A stretch of DNA of 64,000 nucleotides from an uncultured Candidatus Saccharibacteria bacterium (lineage in GTDB: Bacteria; Patescibacteriota; Minisyncoccia; Phycocordibacterales; Zambryskibacteraceae), in assembly GCA_964651655.1 (NCBI GenBank), contig CAZYVS010000001.1, positions 5,132 to 69,131 of the forward strand, written 5' to 3'. Shown here one piece after another: positions 4,080-61,147 of this stretch. How positions within the stretch are numbered: the first letter of the stretch is position 1; every line of letters begins with the position of its first letter. Below the pieces are notes generated by a model. The model was not told the DNA's origin and did no database searches. It saw nothing but the letters and a program-made list of their open reading frames with translations. The position numbers were made by a program, and so were the translations under genes.

Positions 4080-4150
4080 TGCCGGCTCGTCTAATGGTAG
4101 GACACATCCCTCTGGAGGATGTTATCGGGGTCCGAGTCCCTGGCCGGCAG
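4080..4150 (+). tRNA. tRNA-Gln (anticodon CTG)
   Basis: Hand-folded cloverleaf. Acceptor TGCCGGC/GCCGGCA. D-stem GTCT/GGAC. Anticodon stem CATCC/GGATG with loop CTCTGGA (anticodon CUG). T-stem CGGGG/CCCTG with loop TCCGAGT. No encoded CCA. Confidence 0.65.
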
Positions 4151-21874: not shown

Positions 21875-21908
21875 GGGCCGAGGGCTGATAATCGCCAGCC
21901 CTCGGCCC
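21875..21908 (-). terminator. intrinsic terminator of ORF 21924..22226
   Basis: 13-bp perfect stem GGGCCGAGGGCTG / CAGCCCTCGGCCC. On the minus strand it is followed by TCTTTTTTGTTTG. Confidence 0.5.
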
Positions 21909-23968: not shown

Positions 23969-25333
23969 TCACGATTTAAGTATTTTAATTTTCGCGCCAA
24001 TTTTGTTTAATCGCCCCACGATATCCTCATAACCGCGCTTGATGGCATAAACGTTTCGTAAGATTGACTTCCCTTCCGCCCCAAGCATGGCCACCATAAG
24101 CATCACCGCCGGCCGAAGCGCCGGAGGACAAACAATCTGCGCGCCCTTGAGACGAGACGGCCCGTCAACAAAAACGCGATGAGGGTCAGCCAAGCGAACG
24201 GTCGCTCCAAGGCGATTAAGCTCGATAAAGAAAACGGCTCTGTCCTCCCACATCCAATCATGTATCAGCGTGCTACCCTCAGCTTGCGTGGCGATCGGGA
24301 CAAAAAAGGGGAGGTTGTCGGTATTGATGCCCGGGTACGGCTGGGCGTGAATCTTGTCGTGAAGCGCTGTTAATTTGGAAGGTTTGATGATCAGATCAAT
24401 AAGTTTGGTCCGGCCATTGGCGGCTAAATATGTTTTGGATATATCGTAACGCAATCCCATTTTTTCAAGCTTAAGAAGTTCCAGTTTAAGAAAATCAATG
24501 GGCGCTCTTTTAATCACAAGTTTAGAATGGGTCACGATGGCCGCGGTGATAAAAAGCATGGCCTCTATAGGGTCCTCGCTGTTGGAATATTCAATATCCT
24601 TTTTGATATTTGGATTACCCTCTATCACAAGCCTCTTTGTCCCGATACCATCTATTTTTATTCCCAATTTCTGTAAAAAATAACATACCTCAAGCACCAT
24701 ATAATTCTGTTGGGCGAAATCTATAGTGGTTTGCTGCGGCCCGCCTGTCGGCGAGGCAGGCAGAACAGCCGCCCGCAAGATGGCGTTGGTGGTGCCGGTA
24801 TCAGACGCTTCATACATCACCACCTCTTTTTTCGCCCGCCCATTTTGTGTTTGTGAGATGTGGTAGAAGTTTTCCTTGGTTACGATTTTTAACCCCAAAT
24901 CTTCAAGCGCGTAGCGGTGAGCGGCGATAGTTCTCTCTCCCATTTGACAGCCACCGATGTGAGGTAATTTGAAAGATTTTAACCTGTTAGAAAGCGGTCC
25001 GATAAGCATCAGAGCAGAACGAATTTTGCCAGTGGAATGACTGTTGATTTGTGAGATAGAAAAGGTTTTCGGCGGTTCAATGGTGAGAGTATTTTTGTCA
25101 ATCCATACCACTCTGATACTCAAACTCTTGAAAATTTCTATAAATCGGTTGACTTCCTCGATTCGGGGAATATTTTTTAAAGTAGTTTGGCCGCGATTCA
25201 CAAGAGCGGCGGCAAAGAGATGGGTGGCGCCGTTTTTGGAAGCGTTAGTGGTAATAGAACCGGAAAGTTTGTGTCCGCCCTCTATTTCAAAGTCGTCTTT
25301 TTCATCCCGCCAATTAATCGAAGTGGGGGCCAT
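23969..25333 (-). CDS. murA: UDP-N-acetylglucosamine 1-carboxyvinyltransferase
   Basis: 454 aa. 'ITTNASKNGATHLFAAALVNRGQTTLKNIPRIEEVNRFIEIFKSLSI' and 'PHIGGCQMGERTIAAHRYALEDLG' (active-site Cys loop) match the MurA/EPSP-synthase fold. Confidence 0.85.
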   Translation of the reverse strand: MAPTSINWRDEKDDFEIEGGHKLSGSITTNASKNGATHLFAAALVNRGQTTLKNIPRIEEVNRFIEIFKSLSIRVVWIDKNTLTIEPPKTFSISQINSHSTGKIRSALMLIGPLSNRLKSFKLPHIGGCQMGERTIAAHRYALEDLGLKIVTKENFYHISQTQNGRAKKEVVMYEASDTGTTNAILRAAVLPASPTGGPQQTTIDFAQQNYMVLEVCYFLQKLGIKIDGIGTKRLVIEGNPNIKKDIEYSNSEDPIEAMLFITAAIVTHSKLVIKRAPIDFLKLELLKLEKMGLRYDISKTYLAANGRTKLIDLIIKPSKLTALHDKIHAQPYPGINTDNLPFFVPIATQAEGSTLIHDWMWEDRAVFFIELNRLGATVRLADPHRVFVDGPSRLKGAQIVCPPALRPAVMLMVAMLGAEGKSILRNVYAIKRGYEDIVGRLNKIGAKIKILKS

Positions 25334-30117: not shown

Positions 30118-30366
30118 CTATCTCAAGATGAATAAAGCAAATTTCTTTTCTCGCCTCCATCCTTTAATCTCCGCTTCTCTTTGCCGTGCCTCTTTCAATG
30201 TCTTAAAAGCTTCTTGGTACTTCAATATAACTGGTCTACGCAGTTTTGTGTAATGTGCACCCCACTTCGAATCATTATGTTGTTCTACTCTCCTAACAAG
30301 ATTATTCGTACAACCGACATAGAGAGATTTATCTGCACATTCTAAGATATAGACGAAATACGACAT
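30118..30366 (-). CDS. GIY-YIG nuclease superfamily small protein (UPF0213/YhbQ-like), copy 1
   Basis: 82 aa. 'YFVYILECADKSLYVGCTNNLVRRVEQHN' matches the GIY-(10)-YVG-x-T-x-N-x-x-RR-x-x-H GIY-YIG core. Confidence 0.75.
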   Translation of the reverse strand: MSYFVYILECADKSLYVGCTNNLVRRVEQHNDSKWGAHYTKLRRPVILKYQEAFKTLKEARQREAEIKGWRREKKFALFILR

Positions 30367-30467
30367 GAGAACTTTAGGCCCTTCACTTTCGTTCAGGGAC
30401 TTCTTCTCTCCTGTATATGCTGGCCGCAGGCACTGATGAGCCTTCGTCCAGCGAAGGTGAAGAAGTG

Positions 30468-30538
30468 CTGCGGGGGTAGGAGTCGGACCTACATACGCAG
30501 CTTCAAAGGCTGCTGTCCTGCCGTTAGACGACCCCGCA
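30468..30538 (-). tRNA. tRNA-Gln (anticodon TTG)
   Basis: Hand-folded on the minus strand. Acceptor TGCGGGG/CCCCGCA. D-stem GTCT/GGAC. Anticodon stem GCAGC/GCTGC with loop CTTTGAA (anticodon UUG). T-stem GTAGG/CCTAC with loop TCCGACT. Lies between two GIY-YIG genes. Confidence 0.7.
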
Positions 30539-30540
30539 AA

Positions 30541-30786
30541 TTATTGCAGAAATAGGGTTTTGAGAAACTTTCTACCATTTGCTGTCTTAAGCTGTTTTTC
30601 CCTTTTTCTAGCTTCAGTAAGGTTATCATATTGCTCATGGTAAATCATTACCCATGGTTTATGTCTCTTGGTATAGAAATGCTTACCAGAATTATGTTCA
30701 GCAAGTCTTCTGTCTAAGTTATTGGTCATTCCCACATAACTCTTTTGAACTGAACAACTCTTTAAAACATAAATGTAATAAACCAT
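30541..30786 (-). CDS. GIY-YIG nuclease superfamily small protein (UPF0213/YhbQ-like), copy 2
   Basis: 81 aa. 'YYIYVLKSCSVQKSYVGMTNNLDRRLAEHN' GIY-YIG core. Stop codon is 2 nt before the 5' end of tRNA-Gln(TTG). Confidence 0.75.
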   Translation of the reverse strand: MVYYIYVLKSCSVQKSYVGMTNNLDRRLAEHNSGKHFYTKRHKPWVMIYHEQYDNLTEARKREKQLKTANGRKFLKTLFLQ

Positions 30787-30798
30787 AATAAAAAGGCG

Positions 30799-30920
30799 TG
30801 TCCTACCCGCCTCGCGTCGACTCGCCCTGAATTGGGCGAAGTGAGCAAGTCCCCGCGAGTCGAGGCGGGCCGTTAGACCAGCTTCGACTAGATGTCGAAT
30901 CTAGGCGAGCGACCCCGCAA
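30799..30920 (-). pseudogene. disrupted partial copy of tRNA-Gln(TTG) 5' region carrying two palindromic-element insertions
   Basis: Minus strand reads TTGCGGGGTCG-[31-nt insert with CTAGAT/ATCTAG stem]-GTCTAACGGC-[approx 62-nt GC-rich palindromic insert CCGCCTCGACTCGCGGGG...GCGAGTCGACGCGAGGCGG]-GTAGGACA. Compare with the intact tRNA TGCGGGGTCGTCTAACGGCAGGACA. Sits immediately upstream of GIY-YIG copy 2. Confidence 0.5.
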
Positions 30921-31005
30921 ATTACACCTTGATAGTACGAATTATTTCCACTTTTAGCAAATTTAATTGATGATTTTAGAATTCAGATTCTGATATAATA
31001 GAATT

Positions 31006-31221: not shown

Positions 31222-32267
31222 ACGGATTTAATACAATCGGCCAACGCAATCTCCAGAGCCAATTCCGGAATAGAGGTGCGGCCGGAATCTTCATAGGCAG
31301 TAATAAATGACAGTAGAACTTCGGCGGTCAGATCTGAACCGGCTTTTGCCGCTAATTTCTGAAGGAAGACGAAATCATCTTCGGAAACTTGTTTTTTAAT
31401 ATAATCATCCATACCCGCTTTAAGCCGAAGCAAGAAAAGAAAGCGCAGCCGTTCAAGGATAAGCTTGGCAAAAAGCTTCATCTCGGCATTGGCCGCTACG
31501 GCGTTCTGGATTGCCCTCATCCCCTTTTCGATATCTTTGTCAATAATTGATTCAAGTATATTTCTAACCAACTCCGCTTTCGGTGCGCCTGTCACTATTT
31601 CCACTTCTTCGCGAGTAATTTTTTTATTGTTTGTTGAGGAAAACACTTTTTCCAAAATTCCATGTGCATCACGAAAGGAACCGTCACCCAAAATAGCCAC
31701 TAGCTCCGCCGCCGCCGGCTCCAGAGTAAAGCCTTCCTTTTTCGCCACCGAGAGAGCAAAAGTTTTGAGCATCACTTGATTTGGTTGTCTGAAAGAAAAA
31801 GTCTGACAACGAGAAACTACCGTCTCCGGCACCTTTTCTAATTCGGTTGTCGCCAACACAAACACGACATGTTGCGGCGGTTCCTCAAGAGTTTTGAGAA
31901 AAGCGTTCCAGGCATCCTTGGTAAGCATATGCACCTCATCAATAATATAAACCTTGTAATGTGAATCAAAGGGCAGAGTGTTGACGGATTCTCGAATCTC
32001 GCGGACATCATCAATACCACGATTAGAGGCGGCGTCCATCTCGACCAAATCGTTGGCTGAAGTGCCAATCTCTCGTGATAAGATTCTCGCCATCGAAGTC
32101 TTGCCGGTACCGCGCGAACCGGAGAAGAGATAAGCGTGCGAAATATTACCGAGTTTGATTGCTCCTTCCAAAACTCTGACGATATGATCTTGACCGATAA
32201 CATCCTTAAAATGTTGCGGACGATATTTGCGATACAGCACGCCTCCGGTTTTAGTATCTTTCTTCAT
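31218..32267 (-). CDS. dnaX: DNA polymerase III subunit gamma/tau (short form)
   Basis: 'YRKYRPQHFKDVIGQDHIV...HAYLFSGSRGTGKTSMARIL' clamp-loader AAA+ N-terminus. 'IIDEVHMLT' Walker B. SRC motif 'TVVSRCQ'. Confidence 0.85.
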   Translation of the reverse strand: MKKDTKTGGVLYRKYRPQHFKDVIGQDHIVRVLEGAIKLGNISHAYLFSGSRGTGKTSMARILSREIGTSANDLVEMDAASNRGIDDVREIRESVNTLPFDSHYKVYIIDEVHMLTKDAWNAFLKTLEEPPQHVVFVLATTELEKVPETVVSRCQTFSFRQPNQVMLKTFALSVAKKEGFTLEPAAAELVAILGDGSFRDAHGILEKVFSSTNNKKITREEVEIVTGAPKAELVRNILESIIDKDIEKGMRAIQNAVAANAEMKLFAKLILERLRFLFLLRLKAGMDDYIKKQVSEDDFVFLQKLAAKAGSDLTAEVLLSFITAYEDSGRTSIPELALEIALADCIKSV

Positions 32268-33280
32268 ACCGGTATTATACGATTTTTTATGAATTCGGAT
32301 ATAATTGCCTCTACCTCACTCGCGTTATTGGTATTCATTAGTTTAACGCGCAAATCTCCTATTCCATCAATGCCAGATAAATAGGCCTTAAAATGTTTTT
32401 TCATCACAGCAAAACTTTTATGCTCGCCGAGTAATTCTTCAAACAATTTTATATGCTTCACCAACACTCGTAACTTTTCTTCTATAGAAGGGGGTTTGTC
32501 CAAGTCGGCAAACAACCACGGATTACCGAAGATGGCGCGTCCAAACATTATTCCGTTACAACCCGTTTCTTCAATCCGCATTCTTGCTTCTTTTAAATTT
32601 CTTACATCACCATTACCCAAGATTAAAGTTTCTTTGCCGGAAGCATTTCGAATCTCGACGGCGCGTTTGACAAATTCCCACCGGGCCGATACCTTGGACA
32701 TCTCTTTCCTAGTGCGAGCATGGATAGTCACTACGGCCACATCTTCTTCAAGAATTTCTGGTAACCAATTTTCAAGCTCTGGTTTGTTATAGCCGATACG
32801 AGTCTTCACAGATACCGGTAGTGAGCCCGCGCCTTCTTTGGCTGCGTTGATAAGTTCTCTAGCCAGCAACACATTCTTCATAAGCGAAGCTCCGGCGCCT
32901 TGTTTCTCCACATTTTTGTCCGGGCAACCCATATTGATGTCAACTCCGTCAAAGCCGAGCTCGCGTGCGAGCTCGGCGGCTTTCTTCATATTTTCGGGCA
33001 CAGAGGTAAAAAATTGCGCTACTATTGGTCGTTCCGCTTCACTATATTCAAGACTTTTCAAAAGCTTTTTTCTGCCTGCTTCAGGCGCTAATGCTAAACC
33101 ATCAGCGGAAACAAACTCTGTCCACATCACATCGGGCCCGCCTCGCCTCGGCTCGCCATCGCGAGTCGAGGCGGACTTACTCACTTCTGCAATAATACGT
33201 CGAAAAGCCGCGTCCGTCACATCGGCCATGGGCGCCAGTACAAAAATTGGTTTACTTAATTTTCCCCAAAATCCAAGCAT
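32264..33280 (-). CDS. dus: tRNA-dihydrouridine synthase
   Basis: 'FVLAPMADVTDAAFRRI', 'NMGCPDKNV' (catalytic Cys) and 'VSVKTRIGYN' match the Dus TIM-barrel. Contains an in-frame insertion 'SKSASTRDGEPRRGGP' encoded by a GC-rich palindromic element. Confidence 0.85.
   Translation of the reverse strand: MLGFWGKLSKPIFVLAPMADVTDAAFRRIIAEVSKSASTRDGEPRRGGPDVMWTEFVSADGLALAPEAGRKKLLKSLEYSEAERPIVAQFFTSVPENMKKAAELARELGFDGVDINMGCPDKNVEKQGAGASLMKNVLLARELINAAKEGAGSLPVSVKTRIGYNKPELENWLPEILEEDVAVVTIHARTRKEMSKVSARWEFVKRAVEIRNASGKETLILGNGDVRNLKEARMRIEETGCNGIMFGRAIFGNPWLFADLDKPPSIEEKLRVLVKHIKLFEELLGEHKSFAVMKKHFKAYLSGIDGIGDLRVKLMNTNNASEVEAIISEFIKNRIIPV
33137..33195. repeat. GC-rich palindromic element (CGCCTCG...GCGAGTCGAGGCGG family) inserted in-frame in dus
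   Basis: CGCCTCGCCTCGGCTCGCC-atc-GCGAGTCGAGGCGG, followed by GGACTTACTCACTTC. A related copy lies at 30805..30880 (CCGCCTCGCGTCGACTCGCC...GGCGAAGTGAGCAAGTCC...GCGAGTCGAGGCGGG). Confidence 0.55.
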
Positions 33281-38100: not shown

Positions 38101-38128
38101 GGGGCGAGTCAAAAGTTCGACTCGCCCC
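38101..38128 (-). terminator. intrinsic terminator of ORF 38151..38804
   Basis: GGGGCGAGTC / GACTCGCCCC 10-bp perfect stem. On the minus strand it is followed by TTTTTCTTTG. Confidence 0.55.
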
Positions 38129-39415: not shown

Positions 39416-41656
39416 ATGCGTTTACTTATAGTAGAGTCGCCGTCGAAGGCCAAGACTATCGAAAAATATCTTGGTAAAGATTTTCGCGTGGTGGCTTCTA
39501 TCGGTCATATCAGAGACCTTCCTAAATCAAATAGAGCCGCCATTGATATACCGGCCGGCTTCGTGCCGCATTACGAAGTGGTGAAAGGAAAGGAGAAAGT
39601 AATTTCCGAAATTAAATCACTGGTAAAAAAGGCCGACGAAGTCTTGCTTGCCACCGACCCAGACCGCGAGGGTGAGGCCATTGCCTGGCACGTAGAAGAA
39701 ACGGTTGGGCTCAAGAATCCAAAACGCGTTGTTTTTTACGAAATTACCAAAGAAGCCGTGGAGGAAGCTATTGAACACCCGAGAGAAATCGATACCAATT
39801 TGAGAGAAGCGCAAGAAGCCAGAAGAGTGCTGGATCGCCTAGTAGGCTACGATCTCTCTGGACTTATCTGGAAAAAAGTGCGTTACGGTCTGTCGGCCGG
39901 CAGAGTGCAATCCCCCGCCCTTAGAATTATCATGGAACGCGAAAGAGAAATTCGCGCGTTTGAGTCAATCACTTTCTGGAAAATTTTTGCAAATTTGGAA
40001 TCCAAAGTCAGACCTTTAAAAGATTCTCAAGGTCTGACCTTTGAATGTTCGGTTGAGCCTACAGACCAGAAAGAAGTGGAAAACATTCTTGAAGCAGGCA
40101 GAAATGGTTCGTGGCAAATAACAGATATTAAAGAAACGAAGGTGGCGCGCGCTCCGCGCGCGCCCTTCATCACCTCAACTCTGCAACAGGCGGCCAGCTC
40201 CCGACTTGGCCTCGCACCGTCTCGCACCATGTACTTTGCCCAAAGACTCTATGAAGCTGGACATATTACTTATATGCGCACAGATTCTACAAATCTTGGA
40301 GCAGCCGCGCGCAAGGAGGTTGAAGAATTGATAAAGAAAAAATACGGAGAAAGTTATTTTGAATCGCATGTTTTTACTAAAAAATCAAAAAACGCCCAAG
40401 AAGCCCACGAAGCCATCAGACCTACGCACATGAAAGTGGAAATGGCCGGAGTGAGCGACGGGGAGAAGAAACTCTACGGTTTAATCTGGCAAAGAACCAT
40501 ATCCAGCCAGATGAAATCAGCGGAAATTATGCGCACGAAGGTGGTGGCGAATATACAAGAAGTTGAGCTTCCACTTGGAAGCTCAACTTCCAAGCGAGAT
40601 TTAATACCTGATTTCTGGCTCAATGGTTCGCGCATCATCTTCGACGGCTGGCTTAAGGCGGACCGCCTATCGGCCGGCGAAGATATTGTCTTACCGAAAC
40701 TTGATATCGGCGAACCATTAAAACTGATAGACATGAATGTTGAGCAAAAAGAAACCCAACCGCCAGCCAGATACTCGGAAGCGGGTCTGGTTAAGGAACT
40801 TGAGAAACGCGGTATCGGTCGACCTTCCACTTATGCTTCTATTATCAAAACTTTGGATGATCGCGGATATGTAGAAAAAAGGGCTAAAGCGCTCTATCCA
40901 ACTGATACCGGCGAGGTAGTCAGCACTTTTCTCGAAGAACATTTTCCTACTTATATCAGCGACTCCTTCACCGCCGAAATGGAAGACGAATTGGATGATA
41001 TTGCCAACGGCGCACGTACCTATAGGAAAACCCTGTCAGACTTTTATACACCATTTCTAAAAGCGGTGGTAGAAAAAGAAAAAGTTCCAAAAGTCACCAA
41101 TCTTGGCCAGGCGCCAGAGGACTTGAAGTGTCCTGTCTGTGGAGCTAACATGATTATCAAGCTTGGCCGAGGCGGCAAGTTCCTGTCATGTGAAAAGTAT
41201 CCGGAGTGTCAGGGAGCCCGCACCATGGAAGGTAAAGAGCTTGAGGGGCCTAAAGATACCGGAGAAATCTGTCCAAAATGTGGCAAGGGAAATCTGACCA
41301 CTCGCGAGGGTAAGTTTGGAATGTTCACCACCTGTTCGCGTTTTCCAAAATGCAAATTTGTTAAAAAGGATAAAGAACAAGAAAAGGCGAACTCCACCGG
41401 AGTAGAATGTCCGATTTGTAAAAATGCCCTGCCTGCCGGCAGGCAGGGCTTCATATCGGAAAGACGCGGACGGTTCGGAGTTTTCTACAGCTGTTCAAAT
41501 TATCCCGATTGCAAATATGCCATCAAGGCCAAGCCCACCGGGGAAGTTTGTAAACTCTGCGATAGTTTAATGATGGAAGGCACTAAAACTATTCCAGAAA
41601 GATGCTCAAATAAAAAATGCCCAAATCACAATCCGCACAAAACCAGCCAGATGTAA
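39416..41656 (+). CDS. topA: DNA topoisomerase I
   Basis: TOPRIM 'MRLLIVESPSKAKTIEKYLG'. Active-site region 'GHITYMRTDS'. C-terminal tandem C4 zinc ribbons ('CPVCGANM...CEKYPEC', 'CPKCGKGNL...CSRFPKC', 'CPICKN...CSNYPDC'). Contains an in-frame 32-nt perfect palindrome. Confidence 0.9.
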   Translation: MRLLIVESPSKAKTIEKYLGKDFRVVASIGHIRDLPKSNRAAIDIPAGFVPHYEVVKGKEKVISEIKSLVKKADEVLLATDPDREGEAIAWHVEETVGLKNPKRVVFYEITKEAVEEAIEHPREIDTNLREAQEARRVLDRLVGYDLSGLIWKKVRYGLSAGRVQSPALRIIMEREREIRAFESITFWKIFANLESKVRPLKDSQGLTFECSVEPTDQKEVENILEAGRNGSWQITDIKETKVARAPRAPFITSTLQQAASSRLGLAPSRTMYFAQRLYEAGHITYMRTDSTNLGAAARKEVEELIKKKYGESYFESHVFTKKSKNAQEAHEAIRPTHMKVEMAGVSDGEKKLYGLIWQRTISSQMKSAEIMRTKVVANIQEVELPLGSSTSKRDLIPDFWLNGSRIIFDGWLKADRLSAGEDIVLPKLDIGEPLKLIDMNVEQKETQPPARYSEAGLVKELEKRGIGRPSTYASIIKTLDDRGYVEKRAKALYPTDTGEVVSTFLEEHFPTYISDSFTAEMEDELDDIANGARTYRKTLSDFYTPFLKAVVEKEKVPKVTNLGQAPEDLKCPVCGANMIIKLGRGGKFLSCEKYPECQGARTMEGKELEGPKDTGEICPKCGKGNLTTREGKFGMFTTCSRFPKCKFVKKDKEQEKANSTGVECPICKNALPAGRQGFISERRGRFGVFYSCSNYPDCKYAIKAKPTGEVCKLCDSLMMEGTKTIPERCSNKKCPNHNPHKTSQM
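40559..40594. repeat. perfect 15+15-bp palindrome (GAAGTTGAGCTTCCA-CT-TGGAAGCTCAACTTC), extended by CAAG to complete an overlapping CTTGGAAG/CTTCCAAG hairpin, inside topA in frame
   Basis: Encodes 'EVELPLGSSTSK'. A related core CACTTGGAAGCTCAAC(C/T)TCCAAG recurs inside miaA (47481..47503), which also encodes 'PLGSSTSK'. Confidence 0.6.
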
Positions 41657-43161: not shown

Positions 43162-44084
43162 AGGCTAAAATTGGCGACCGAATAGAGAGATTCGTCGTCT
43201 CCGCTACCAGTCAGAGACGGCGCCTCCGCTGTCGAAAAGTTTTGTTCCGGTTGATTCTTGATTTTCTCGTCAGAAATAATTCTATCCAACAAGGCGCGCA
43301 GATCGTCTTTGTTGAAGAAATCAATCGTCACCCGGCCGCCTTCTTCCTTTTTTTCTATCCGCACCCGAGTGCCAAGTTTTTCTTTGAATTGATCTTCAAT
43401 GTCTATCAGTTCCTGGTCAATAAGTTTGCGAGCGCGCTCCACCGCAATATGGCGAGCAATACCTTCGGCTTCCCTGACATTGAGTTTTTTAAAAATAATT
43501 TCTTTGAAAAGAGTCTCCTGCTCCTGCGGTCGGTCTATCAGCATCATCAGCGGACGGGTGTGGCCTTCGGTAATCTTGTTTTCCGAGAGCGCATTAATAA
43601 TGTAATCCGGAAGCGTAAGAATGCGCAAAGAATTTGAAACATATTCGCGGCTCTTGCCGACTTTCTTGCCTATCTCATGGTGTTTGAAATTAAATTCTTT
43701 TACCAATCGATCAAAGGCTCGCGCCCGGTCCACCGGACTAAGATCCTCGCGTTGGATATTCTCGATGATAGCGAGCTCAAGTTTCATCAAATCCGTTTCT
43801 TCACCGGTGCGGATAAGTACCGGCACTTGCGCGAGACCGGCTAGGCGAGCGGCGCGAAGGCGCCGCTCGCCGGCTACCAATTCGTACTCTACGCCGATAC
43901 CGCCGTCTTCTTTTATTATTTCATTACGCGTCACGACCAGAGCCTGAAGCACGCCATATTGGCGAATTGAATCCGCGAGACTTCTTAATTGAACCTCGTC
44001 AAATCCGCGGCGCGGTTGAAATGGGTTTGGTTTGATTTTATCCACCTCTATCCAGAAAATGGAATCGTTATAGAATCGTGACAT
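43158..44084 (-). CDS. parB: ParB/Spo0J-family partition protein
   Basis: 'KPNPFQPRRGFDEVQLRSLADSIRQYGVLQALVV' is the ParB N-terminal CTPase/nuclease-like box. 'GLAQVPVL' follows. HTH region present. Confidence 0.8.
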   Translation of the reverse strand: MSRFYNDSIFWIEVDKIKPNPFQPRRGFDEVQLRSLADSIRQYGVLQALVVTRNEIIKEDGGIGVEYELVAGERRLRAARLAGLAQVPVLIRTGEETDLMKLELAIIENIQREDLSPVDRARAFDRLVKEFNFKHHEIGKKVGKSREYVSNSLRILTLPDYIINALSENKITEGHTRPLMMLIDRPQEQETLFKEIIFKKLNVREAEGIARHIAVERARKLIDQELIDIEDQFKEKLGTRVRIEKKEEGGRVTIDFFNKDDLRALLDRIISDEKIKNQPEQNFSTAEAPSLTGSGDDESLYSVANFSL

Positions 44085-47882: not shown

Positions 47883-47955
47883 GGGCGATTAGTTAAGTGG
47901 TATAACTTCGGTCTCCACCCCGTCGCTCGCGAGCGACGGGGTCCAAAACCGATAT
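47883..47955 (+). pseudogene. partial tRNA-Trp copy (5' portion, nt 1 to about 45) with 28-nt insertion in the anticodon loop
   Basis: GGGCGATTAGTTAAGTGGTATAACTTCGGTCTCC is identical to the 5' half of the intact tRNA-Trp at 48209. A perfect 24-nt palindrome CCCCGTCGCTCGCGAGCGACGGGG (47908..47931) follows. Then comes ...AAAACCGATAT, abutting the ATG of GIY-YIG copy 3. Confidence 0.55.
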
Positions 47956-47957
47956 AT

Positions 47958-48218
47958 ATGTATTACGTATATATTCTAAAAAATCTCAAAACAAAGAATT
48001 TGTATATAGGATACACCCGAAATTTAAGACGTAGAATAAATGAGCATCAGAGCGGAAAGGTATACACAACAAAACGATTAGGACGTGATGTGGACCTCGT
48101 TTACTACGAAGCTTATAAAAATGAGGATGATGCAAGAGATAGGGAGAAAAGTTTTAAAAATTCTGGTTCCGTGTACAATGGACTAGTTAAACGAATAAAA
48201 CGCAGTAGGGGCGATTAG
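47958..48218 (+). CDS. GIY-YIG nuclease superfamily small protein (UPF0213/YhbQ-like), copy 3
   Basis: 86 aa. 'YYVYILKNLKTKNLYIGYTRNLRRRINEHQ' GIY-YIG core. The 3' end overlaps the first 10 nt of the intact tRNA-Trp. Confidence 0.75.
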   Translation: MYYVYILKNLKTKNLYIGYTRNLRRRINEHQSGKVYTTKRLGRDVDLVYYEAYKNEDDARDREKSFKNSGSVYNGLVKRIKRSRGD

Positions 48219-48282
48219 TTAAGTGGTATAACTTCGGTCTCCAAAACCGATATCGGGGGTTCGATTCCCTCATCGCCCGCCA
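48209..48282 (+). tRNA. tRNA-Trp (anticodon CCA)
   Basis: Acceptor GGGCGAT/ATCGCCC plus G-CCA. D-stem GTTA/TAAC. Anticodon stem TCGGT/ACCGA with loop CTCCAAA. T-stem GGGGG/CCCTC with loop TTCGATT. Confidence 0.8.
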
Positions 48283-61103: not shown

Positions 61104-61147
61104 ATTACTTGTGGTGAGCTTGCCCCGCCGTGGCGGGGCGAGTCGAA

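Follow-up and report, generated by a model that had tools for sequence, protein, structure and literature searches.

GIY-YIG nuclease genes flanking a tRNA-Gln gene as proposed members of a selfish, homing-like cassette class in bacterial tRNA transcription units

In a 64,000-nt stretch of a contig from an uncultured Candidatus Saccharibacteria bacterium (GenBank assembly GCA_964651655.1, contig CAZYVS010000001.1; the whole stretch is hereafter the window), an intact tRNA-Gln(UUG) gene is flanked by two short genes for GIY-YIG proteins, one of which is preceded by a palindrome-split copy of the 5' part of the same tRNA. The window also matches contig JACPNM010000001.1 of GCA_016185455.1, a metagenome-assembled genome of Candidatus Zambryskibacteria (Patescibacteria), at a coordinate offset of 25192; its first ~25 kb can therefore not stem from that record as numbered, yet the sequence at 25130-25260 shows no junction. 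We consider it somewhat probable that these are two members of a widespread class of selfish, homing-like cassettes that inhabit bacterial tRNA transcription units. The case for this is built on the architecture of the locus, its recurrence in other genomes, the gain and loss of cassettes at a conserved site, signatures of recombination, purifying selection on the open reading frames (ORFs) and the predicted fold of the protein.

All parts of the locus lie on the minus strand. The intact tRNA-Gln(UUG) (30467-30538 by ARAGORN, anticodon ttg; 30468-30538 by Rfam, RF00005, 56.6 bits against a gathering score of 29) is followed after 100 nt by GIY-YIG copy 1 (30118-30366, 82 aa) and preceded by GIY-YIG copy 2 (30541-30786, 81 aa), whose stop codon (30541-30543) leaves a gap of 2 nt to tRNA nucleotide +1. 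Both ORFs match Pfam PF01541 (E = 4e-17 and 1e-15, respectively), and ARAGORN, Rfam and Pfam agree with the original prediction, made from the letters alone, of a tRNA-Gln(TTG) at 30468..30538 between two GIY-YIG genes. Copy 2 is the nuclease gene of what we call a 5'-type cassette, and copy 1, about 40% identical to it, represents a separate subfamily downstream of tRNA-Gln. Upstream of copy 2 stands the remnant. Its piece A, read from the sequence (30870..30919), copies tRNA-Gln nt 1-18 in two parts (nt 1-10 at 30919-30910 and nt 10-18 at 30878-30870) that are separated by a 31-nt hairpin insert (30909-30879), and 5 nt of leader (TAATT, 30924-30920) have been duplicated along with it. After tRNA nt 18 (G18-G19, in the D-loop) comes a GC-rich palindrome of class CCCGCCTCGAC...GTCGAGGCGGG (30869-30806), and then piece B, TAGGACACGCCTTT (30805-30792), a decayed copy of tRNA-Gln nt ~20 to 35 that ends 5 nt before the ATG at 30786. 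A 5' pseudo-copy split by a 31-nt insert and a GC-rich palindrome had been predicted, and both inserts are there, the palindrome measuring 63-64 nt; its description as disrupted holds only in part, since what splits it is no random decay, but a conserved family of GC-rich palindromes in the D-arm. Indeed, the same class occupies the same tRNA position in the Gln-associated loci L003, L004, L028, L032 and L164. The last of these, from a close relative in another assembly, has the same Gln remnant with piece A uninterrupted, so that the 31-nt hairpin, without counterpart there, is lineage-specific. The motif shared by both copies is likewise real: the window has exactly two copies of the 14-mer GACCCCGCAAATTA, where none is expected, at 30911 in the pseudo-copy and at 30530 in the intact tRNA, five positions away from the 30525 first given.

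A candidate sigma-70-like promoter for the whole unit (30932..30960) consists of TTGCTA (30960-30955), a 17-nt spacer and TACTAT (30937-30932), and has the counterpart TTGCCA-N17-TACTAT in L164; the predicted transcription start would fall ~5 nt before the Gln remnant. This hexamer pair (8 of 12 matches) was not flagged by a consensus promoter and terminator scan, which found no terminator either, and for this reason we propose it as a putative promoter only.

The window contains a sister locus on the plus strand. Here, a tRNA-Trp remnant (47883..47955) is made up of nt 1-35 and nt 32-45, both 100% identical to tRNA-Trp, around a 25-nt palindrome in the anticodon loop (CCCCGTCGCTCGCGAGCGACGGGG, 47918-47942) of a class common to the Trp-subfamily loci L170-L174. 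It is followed by GIY-YIG copy 3 (47958..48218, 86 aa, PF01541), which extends 10 nt into the intact tRNA-Trp(CCA) (48209..48282; ARAGORN, Rfam) and uses as its stop the tRNA's own U8-A9-G10. The suggestion that the Gln and Trp loci share one architecture therefore stands for copy 2, with its remnant, ORF and intact tRNA, but not for copy 1, which belongs to the different subfamily downstream of tRNA-Gln. A six-frame profile search of the window recovered these three GIY-YIG ORFs and no others, all of them abutting tRNAs and scoring 58-64 bits with the PF01541 profile (curated cut-off 22.6). Two of the ten tRNAs are thus occupied, and the tRNA-Gln(CUG) at 4080, which had been put forward as a negative control, is naked, as are the seven others.

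The layout recurs widely. We fetched 160 loci, mostly from metagenome-assembled genomes or short metagenomic contigs: the 80 best relatives of copy 2, on one-genome-per-species contigs from Patescibacteria, Bacteroidota, Ignavibacteriota and a few other groups, and the 80 best metagenomic relatives of copy 1. In 56 of the 80 copy 2 relatives a same-strand tRNA starts between -45 and +60 nt from the ORF stop, which the tRNA itself often supplies (overlaps of -10, -15 or -23 nt), and in a further 10 a tRNA ends at most 60 nt upstream of the ORF. The leftover loci include contigs broken inside the remnant (L045, L074), tandem arrangements (L046, L048) and two Patescibacteria loci (L020, L024) with the cassette directly upstream of a tRNA that ARAGORN missed because of an apparent group I intron. 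These introns, judged by eye, appear to lie in the anticodon loop (L020 1738-1900; L024 1741-1900), and two kinds of mobile element would then occupy one tRNA gene. In 50 of these 56, the 150-250 nt that precede the ORF contain the 5' part of the same tRNA as a direct copy. Its left edge is usually tRNA +1, with up to 19 nt of leader added in some loci. It matches the tRNA essentially perfectly over nt 8-19 and at about 0.9 as far as nt 35, and the number of loci covered drops from 45 to 26 at nt 40 and 7 at nt 55. Splitting of the remnant is near universal, and although the site ranges from nt 8 to nt 54 (with a piece A of 11-35 nt, most often 18-22), inserts of at least 12 nt follow tRNA nt 16-23 in 36 of 50. 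The Trp subfamily has the adjacent-tRNA layout in 6/6 loci.

These numbers bear directly on the simplest alternative, namely that the arrangement is due to chance or to faulty assembly. The individual 10-nt matches of the Gln remnant are weak (E about 3), yet they are colinear, and the source is a metagenome-assembled genome; but the layout is present in more than 100 independent assemblies, and the L164 ortholog, assembled elsewhere, carries the same remnant, so that we regard this explanation as extremely improbable. Had GIY-YIG genes been scattered at random with respect to tRNAs, the original prediction of a recurring mobile or targeting process would have lost its basis; the opposite was seen, with 56/80 relatives and 3/3 window ORFs linked to tRNAs, and together with the 50 remnants these loci strongly support it.

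Eight further loci (L025, L044, L051, L055, L058, L066, L067 and L082), some of them with tandem arrays, show the mirror image: the tRNA is upstream, the ORF follows, and then comes a palindrome-interrupted 3' remnant of the same tRNA. The palindrome mostly sits in the T-loop after GGTTC, and in L058, L051 and L082 near the variable or anticodon region; the 3' piece beyond it (18-41 nt) is 100% identical to the tRNA, and in some loci a terminator copy is included too. In databases, numerous relatives are entered as ORFs lengthened by 20-40 aa at the N-terminus or as a fusion of two domains (one of 214 aa, for instance, has two matched stretches), and in L169 the called 115-aa ORF begins inside the palindrome; such over-long calls likely come from gene callers that start in remnants or palindromes, or that read through tandem arrays.

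Gain and loss can be followed at one site. Downstream of dnaX, in relatives with 85-87% DnaX identity, (i) L165 has a naked tRNA-Gln(UUG), copy 1 being absent there too; (ii) L164 has the orthologous remnant, palindrome, copy 2 and tRNA, and lacks copy 1; (iii) L167 has a different GIY-YIG gene upstream, an intact tRNA, a palindrome-riddled second tRNA copy, the leader and the ortholog of copy 1; and (iv) the window has both cassettes. This is the presence/absence polymorphism at a conserved site that is looked for in homing elements. Signs of recombination accompany it. The intact tRNA-Gln of the window differs from that of the three relatives over its whole length (acceptor, anticodon and T stems); piece A has the derived bases G7 and C16 in common with it, whereas piece B is closer to the L164 remnant, a pattern that fits homogenisation of piece A up to the palindrome. 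Loci L098 and L104 are ~99% identical over 1.2 kb of flank, with 26 mismatches packed in 170 nt of the ORF, and their upstream homology ends inside the tRNA. The divergence begins upstream of the last ~15 nt of tRNA-Gln; the tRNA of L098 is intact, and L104 (950-1066) retains only a T-loop/acceptor fragment after GC hairpins, with no tRNA within 1 kb, so that tRNA-Gln appears to be a rearrangement breakpoint between the two. The ORFs of L098 and L108 are 90% identical and their adjoining tRNA-Gln genes very different, and in L173 the remnant represents another tRNA-Trp variant than the adjoining intact tRNA. Protein clusters follow tRNA identity overall, yet different tRNA species and both polarities occur together within one cluster.

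The ORFs are under purifying selection. They are maintained and not decaying, as judged by dN/dS (the ratio of non-synonymous to synonymous substitution rates), which is 0.05-0.28 in five pairs, among them 0.11 for copy 2 against its L164 ortholog and 0.05 for copy 1 against L167. Such constraint would also be expected of a domesticated Slx1-like housekeeping nuclease wired into tRNA operons for its expression, one that, for example, processes the stalled forks, R-loops or hairpins arising where tRNA genes are heavily transcribed, with the remnants as by-products of local recombination. That one clade keeps to one tRNA type across phyla, that the family runs to as many as 11,079 clusters (50% identity, E <=1e-10) and that its fold is like that of Slx1, which in eukaryotes maintains the ribosomal DNA repeats (PMC1564403), all speak for such a role. 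It is harder to reconcile with naked, singly and doubly occupied states of one syntenic tRNA among relatives with ~85% DnaX identity, with an occupancy of only 2/10 tRNAs in the window, with switches of tRNA type and polarity within single protein clusters, with near-identical ORFs beside dissimilar tRNAs, or with tandem arrays; we therefore rate a host function as unlikely.

The nuclease itself is of a minimal kind. A profile of 27 members finds the UPF0213 nuclear magnetic resonance structures BH0048 and EF2693 (1ZG2, 1YWL) at E ~1e-15 (5e-16) and Slx1 at ~1e-5. The AlphaFold model of copy 2 (mean predicted local distance difference test score, pLDDT, 93.4) superposes on Slx1 nuclease domains in Foldseek with a TM score of 0.70-0.75 and a root mean square deviation of 1.4-1.9 A, compared with TM ~0.55 for I-TevI and UvrC, which makes it, by profile and predicted structure, a minimal stand-alone domain of Slx1/UPF0213 type rather than a classical I-TevI type. 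In the 27 sequences Y17, G19, R27, H31 and E63 are invariant and Y6 is at least 90% conserved; Y6, Y17 and R27 presumably align with the catalytic residues of I-TevI. By analogy with the I-TevI and Slx1 literature these residues would be catalytic and the protein an active nuclease. Membership of a defence system found no support: the matches in NCBIfam, PADLOC and PHROGs were sub-threshold and come from the common GIY-YIG motif (group I intron endonuclease, 17-21 bits against a cut-off of 56; PDC-S14; UzuA; a phage homing endonuclease at E = 0.001).

The palindromes that split the remnants fall into classes. The inserts begin with CCYGYC in 32/50 and end with GRCRGG in 30/50, some consist of 2-3 tandem units, and nine are one identical 20-mer, CCTGCCTGCCGGCAGGCAGG. 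The class CCG[CT]CTCG..CGAGGCGG is found at 7/16 loci of Gln-associated Patescibacteria proteins, CCTGCCCG..GGCGGG at 10/13 loci of the Arg-CCU clade, CCTGCC..GGCAGG at 21/24 loci of mixed Bacteroidota clades, and CCCCGTC..GACGGGG beside the Trp subfamily; none of these classes occurs in 59 distal control stretches of 480 nt. In the sequences compared, the class of palindrome tracks the clade of nuclease.

Palindromes of the same classes do occur elsewhere in the window. The ORF for the tRNA-dihydrouridine synthase Dus (32264-33280, minus strand) has an in-frame Gln-class palindrome, CCCGCCTCG...CGAGGCGG, at 33136-33178, which adds ~13 aa and is absent from the orthologs of L164, L163 and L167; the Dus gene of L165 has another palindrome, CCCCGCCTAGGTGGGCGGGG, at the same site, and that of L163 has TCCCGCCACGGCGGGA near the N-terminus. 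Within a topoisomerase-like (TopA-like) ORF with zinc ribbons (39416-41656), the exact 20-mer CCTGCCTGCCGGCAGGCAGG, which splits tRNA remnants in nine Bacteroidota and Shapirobacteria loci, lies in frame in 41426-41449, between the Cys pairs of a zinc ribbon, and encodes ALPAGRQG. Since they are found in frame in Dus and in the TopA-like ORF, away from cassettes, the palindromes probably have some mobility of their own. More short GC-rich perfect palindromes are present in the window (44% GC) at 21875-21908, 38101-38128, 40144-40164, 43844-43871 and 61122-61139, at least three of them (38101, 40144 and 43844) inside long ORFs.

One could therefore hold that the GC-rich palindromes are the true mobile agents, comparable to miniature inverted-repeat transposable elements (MITEs) or Rickettsia palindromic elements, and that they gather in remnants because these are among the few neutral spots in compact genomes, with no functional link to the nuclease. 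As with such elements, copies are dispersed, some in frame, and the Dus insert is polymorphic among relatives; in addition, palindrome units have multiplied in tandem, and in the close relatives L014 and L017 the flanks are identical and the palindrome interiors differ. Independence from the neighbouring gene, though, is not what we see: most remnants carry a palindrome and the 59 distal flanks carry none of these classes, the class follows the nuclease clade, the two classes of the window each lie beside their own nuclease subfamily, and the insertions cluster in the D-arm with no even spread over the remnant. We find this explanation improbable.

A further possibility is that the 5' tRNA fragment and hairpin act at the RNA level, as a functional leader of the nuclease mRNA (a stabiliser, tRNA mimic, processing signal or translational regulator) that is conserved for that reason and not as a recombination arm. 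Four points favour it: over nt 8-19 piece A matches the tRNA at ~100%, with piece B decaying; on its left side the duplication begins at tRNA +1 or a few nt earlier, close to the predicted transcription start; the hairpin is stable; and a leader supported by covariation exists in the copy 1 subfamily. There, 39 of 79 relatives have a tRNA-Gln 64-330 nt upstream on the same strand, many others having too little upstream sequence to judge, and none has a tRNA-Gln downstream; one has tRNA-Met upstream, and the sole downstream tRNA is a tRNA-Met in L125. The leader (30367..30466, minus strand; from the fold and an alignment of 20 loci) starts at the tRNA 3' end and forms two hairpins. Hairpin 1 (30466-30399, ACUUCUUC...GAAGAAGU) has the general form of a long stem, (A/U)CUUCGUCGC...GCGACGAAG; hairpin 2 (30398-30379, CCCU-GA-ACGAAAGU-GA-AGGG), 7-25 nt before the ATG, combines a 4-bp stem and an inner hairpin with tandem G.A pairs between them. 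Compensatory changes support 8 of 11 predicted pairs in 20 sequences, and 26/77 leaders conform to hairpin 2 in its strict form (4-bp stem, GA, inner hairpin, GA), as against 3.5% of shuffled controls; this motif definition is provisional because relaxed variants exist. This leader, with those of L083-L167, is a candidate for a new structured RNA motif; a search of Rfam, both at the gathering threshold and with E up to 5, returned only tRNAs, and nothing for the remnant, the palindromes or the copy 1 leader. In L097, L111, L114 and L167 an extra, palindrome-disrupted copy of tRNA-Gln lies between the intact tRNA and the leader. A 3' tRNA remnant was sought after copy 1, where a T-loop-like GGTTCGGAGTCCGAG follows the stop, as similar strings do in some relatives, and it gave no convincing alignment to tRNA-Gln. 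Against an RNA-level role for the remnants themselves stand the variable position of the insert (nt 8 to 54) and length of piece A (11 to 35 nt), and the fact that piece A co-varies with the tRNA also at the unpaired D-loop position 16, which gene conversion fits better than selection for pairing; moreover, the mirror 3' form and the gain and loss of cassettes would be left unexplained. We accordingly give this possibility little credence.

Returning to the homing-like cassettes, we propose a mechanism based on synthesis-dependent strand annealing (SDSA). In the 5' type, as in copy 2 and the Trp locus, the putative tRNA promoter is followed by remnant nt 1 to ~20, the palindrome, remnant nt ~20-40, the ORF and the complete tRNA; in the mirror 3' type the complete tRNA, the ORF and a 3' remnant with its palindrome succeed one another, and copy 1 is a 3'-side relative with a structured leader directly after the tRNA. 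A break, presumably made or processed by the nuclease, would arise in a naive tRNA gene, within the loop that holds the palindrome in the remnant, and the clustering of inserts at remnant nt 16-23 is an indirect hint at this cut site. The break would be repaired by SDSA from an occupied allele, one broken end pairing with the remnant and the other with the complete tRNA, so that the palindrome, piece B, the ORF and the replacement tRNA segment would be copied in and a functional tRNA regenerated. Since both homology arms of the occupied allele lie in tRNA sequence, it would be copyable in this way into any copy of the same tRNA. The ORF would be transcribed from the tRNA promoter, as suggested by the retention of the hexamer pair in L164 and the finding of no other promoter or terminator, and would be split from the tRNA by RNase P or by 3' processing. 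Finally, the palindrome would move with the ORF and interrupt both the would-be target and the direct repeat in the remnant, an interruption that would protect the cassette from re-cleavage and from repeat-mediated deletion. Such a model, which in its entirety we judge a little likelier to be right than wrong, would account for both polarities, the precise junction of ORF and tRNA, an outer piece that is perfect beside an inner one that decays, the inheritance of palindrome and ORF together, and the pattern of gain and loss. Two other routes were considered: a circular [palindrome-B-ORF-A] intermediate might integrate in the Campbell manner, or a linear intermediate might recombine 'ends-in'. 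The duplication is compatible with either, but the simple version of the latter predicts loss of the palindrome.

Several points weigh against this interpretation. (i) The remnant is interrupted by the palindrome while the complete tRNA is regenerated beside the ORF; a target wholly inside the tRNA would therefore persist next to the nuclease gene, and no mechanism of immunity is evident for the cassette. (ii) Homing endonucleases are expected to have an extra DNA-binding domain, but these 81 aa comprise the catalytic domain only, with nothing to give it site specificity, and Slx1-type enzymes are structure-specific, not sequence-specific. (iii) A host function would be equally compatible with the strong purifying selection and with the fact that one clade has long stayed at one tRNA type, and the Slx1 lineage is regarded as non-selfish and vertically inherited (PMC1564403). 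(iv) The 160 loci are the best-scoring relatives of two query subfamilies and no random sample of UPF0213. (v) Same-class palindromes occur in Dus and the TopA-like ORF, far from any cassette, and palindrome class is partly confounded with host phylum. This confounding is broken in the window, where copy 2 stands next to a Gln-class and copy 3 next to a Trp-class palindrome, and by L043 (Shapirobacteria, tRNA-Asn), whose protein clusters with those of Bacteroidota and which has the Bacteroidota 20-mer.

The regenerated target, the missing DNA-binding domain, the structure specificity of Slx1-type enzymes and the palindromes found elsewhere motivate a more speculative idea, which we think improbable: that remnant and palindrome together form a specificity module for a nuclease without a DNA-binding domain. 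The tRNA-identical arm, which would lie at the end of the transcript (5' in the 5' form, 3' in the mirror form) and abut a clade-specific hairpin, could pair, as RNA or single-stranded DNA, with an exposed strand of the tRNA gene it matches. At the D-loop or T-loop position the hairpin would thereby give rise to a branched junction of the type cut by Slx1-type nucleases, and the whole would be a nucleic-acid-directed, structure-specific homing system with the palindrome as cognate handle.

If the homing-like reading is true, a family to which annotation everywhere gives only the label 'GIY-YIG nuclease family protein' or UPF0213 would turn out to be a major class of mobile elements resident in tRNA genes, and selfish behaviour would be found in the Slx1 lineage, so far seen as housekeeping. 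Many tRNA pseudo-fragments, over-extended N-terminal ORF calls and contig breaks beside tRNAs in metagenome-assembled genomes would have an explanation. The mechanistic question would be how a catalytic domain of 80 aa finds tRNA genes and spares its own regenerated target, a question on which the class-specific palindromes provide an experimental handle; a minimal nuclease that owes its targeting to a small nucleic-acid module would be of interest for applications too.

How do the cassettes compare with known systems? Integrase-borne islands and prophages also target tRNA genes, the carried partial tRNA copy restoring the gene and the displaced fragment marking the other end. They employ tyrosine recombinases with defined att cores and extend over kilobases, and it is almost invariably the 3' part of the gene that they replace. 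The cassettes are like them in having a tRNA gene as target and a tRNA part that restores it, but they measure ~350-450 bp, have no recombinase and exist in both 5' and 3' forms. Mobile elements of intron type in tRNA genes share with the cassettes the same phylum and the same residence; unlike these, the cassettes have no ribozyme, leave the tRNA uninterrupted and do not match any Rfam intron. GC-rich palindromes that insert into genes include the Rickettsia palindromic elements, the GC clusters of yeast mitochondria and the double-hairpin elements of Allomyces. Hairpin elements of this kind are also reported from sponge mitochondria (PMC2800124). Like such repeats, the cassette palindromes are short GC-rich hairpins in compact, AT-rich genomes, some in frame and polymorphic; unlike them, each class is tied to a nuclease clade and to the loops of tRNA remnants.

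Among GIY-YIG proteins, the window proteins belong by sequence and fold with Slx1 and the bacterial UPF0213 proteins (YhbQ, BH0048, EF2693) as minimal stand-alone domains, and the I-TevI/UvrC lineage is a poorer fit to the fold. SegB of phage T4 is larger, with a DNA-binding part. SegB is a free-standing GIY-YIG homing endonuclease in a tRNA gene cluster, whose cleavage drives gene conversion of the tRNA region (PMC2330249); like the cassettes, its gene lies among tRNA genes, but it is a phage gene where the cassettes are chromosomal, and the abstract of that paper mentions no partial tRNA duplication or palindrome. The 2006 phylogenomic study of the GIY-YIG superfamily placed the bacterial proteins in the Slx1 lineage, minimal, vertically inherited and apart from the selfish lineage of homing and restriction endonucleases; it described an involvement of the Slx1 lineage in repair and one fusion to a TrmH-like tRNA G18 methyltransferase, and it reported no tRNA-gene linkage, remnants or palindromes for UPF0213/Slx1 (PMC1564403). 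The searchable literature, queried with the palindrome sequences themselves as well, gave no description of the architecture, although absence there is no proof of novelty.

The closest precedent for the cassettes, by analogy, is given by the mobile endonuclease ORFs (mORFs) of fungal mitochondria (Allomyces macrogynus atp6; Glomus atp6, atp9, cox2 and nad3), which supply the gene with a new terminus, the native one persisting as a remnant (PMC3630166). As in the cassettes, a free-standing endonuclease ORF comes with a replacement terminal segment, the gene stays functional and the duplicated remnant lies beyond the ORF, which can be in phase with the host gene; horizontal transfer of mORFs occurs (PMC3630166). 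This very placement of an ORF between a functional gene and a duplicated terminal remnant is found in the 50 of 56 5'-type loci and in the eight mirror 3'-type loci. A contrast of native remnant and foreign functional segment may or may not apply to the cassettes: in the window the intact tRNA departs from that of three relatives along its whole length and piece B resembles their remnant, and in L173 remnant and tRNA are different variants, with transfer conceivable in either direction. In contrast to the cassettes, mORFs have protein-coding organelle genes as targets and LAGLIDADG or large GIY-YIG nucleases, only replacement of the 3' terminus has been described, and no class-specific palindrome splits the remnant (PMC3630166). 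The cassettes would represent a widespread and apparently undescribed form of selfish DNA, resident in tRNA genes that it leaves functional, and what would set them apart from the known target-replacing endonuclease cassettes, as far as their sequences tell, is the combination of bacterial chromosomal tRNA targets, a minimal nuclease of Slx1 type, the existence of both 5' and 3' forms and a clade-specific palindrome.

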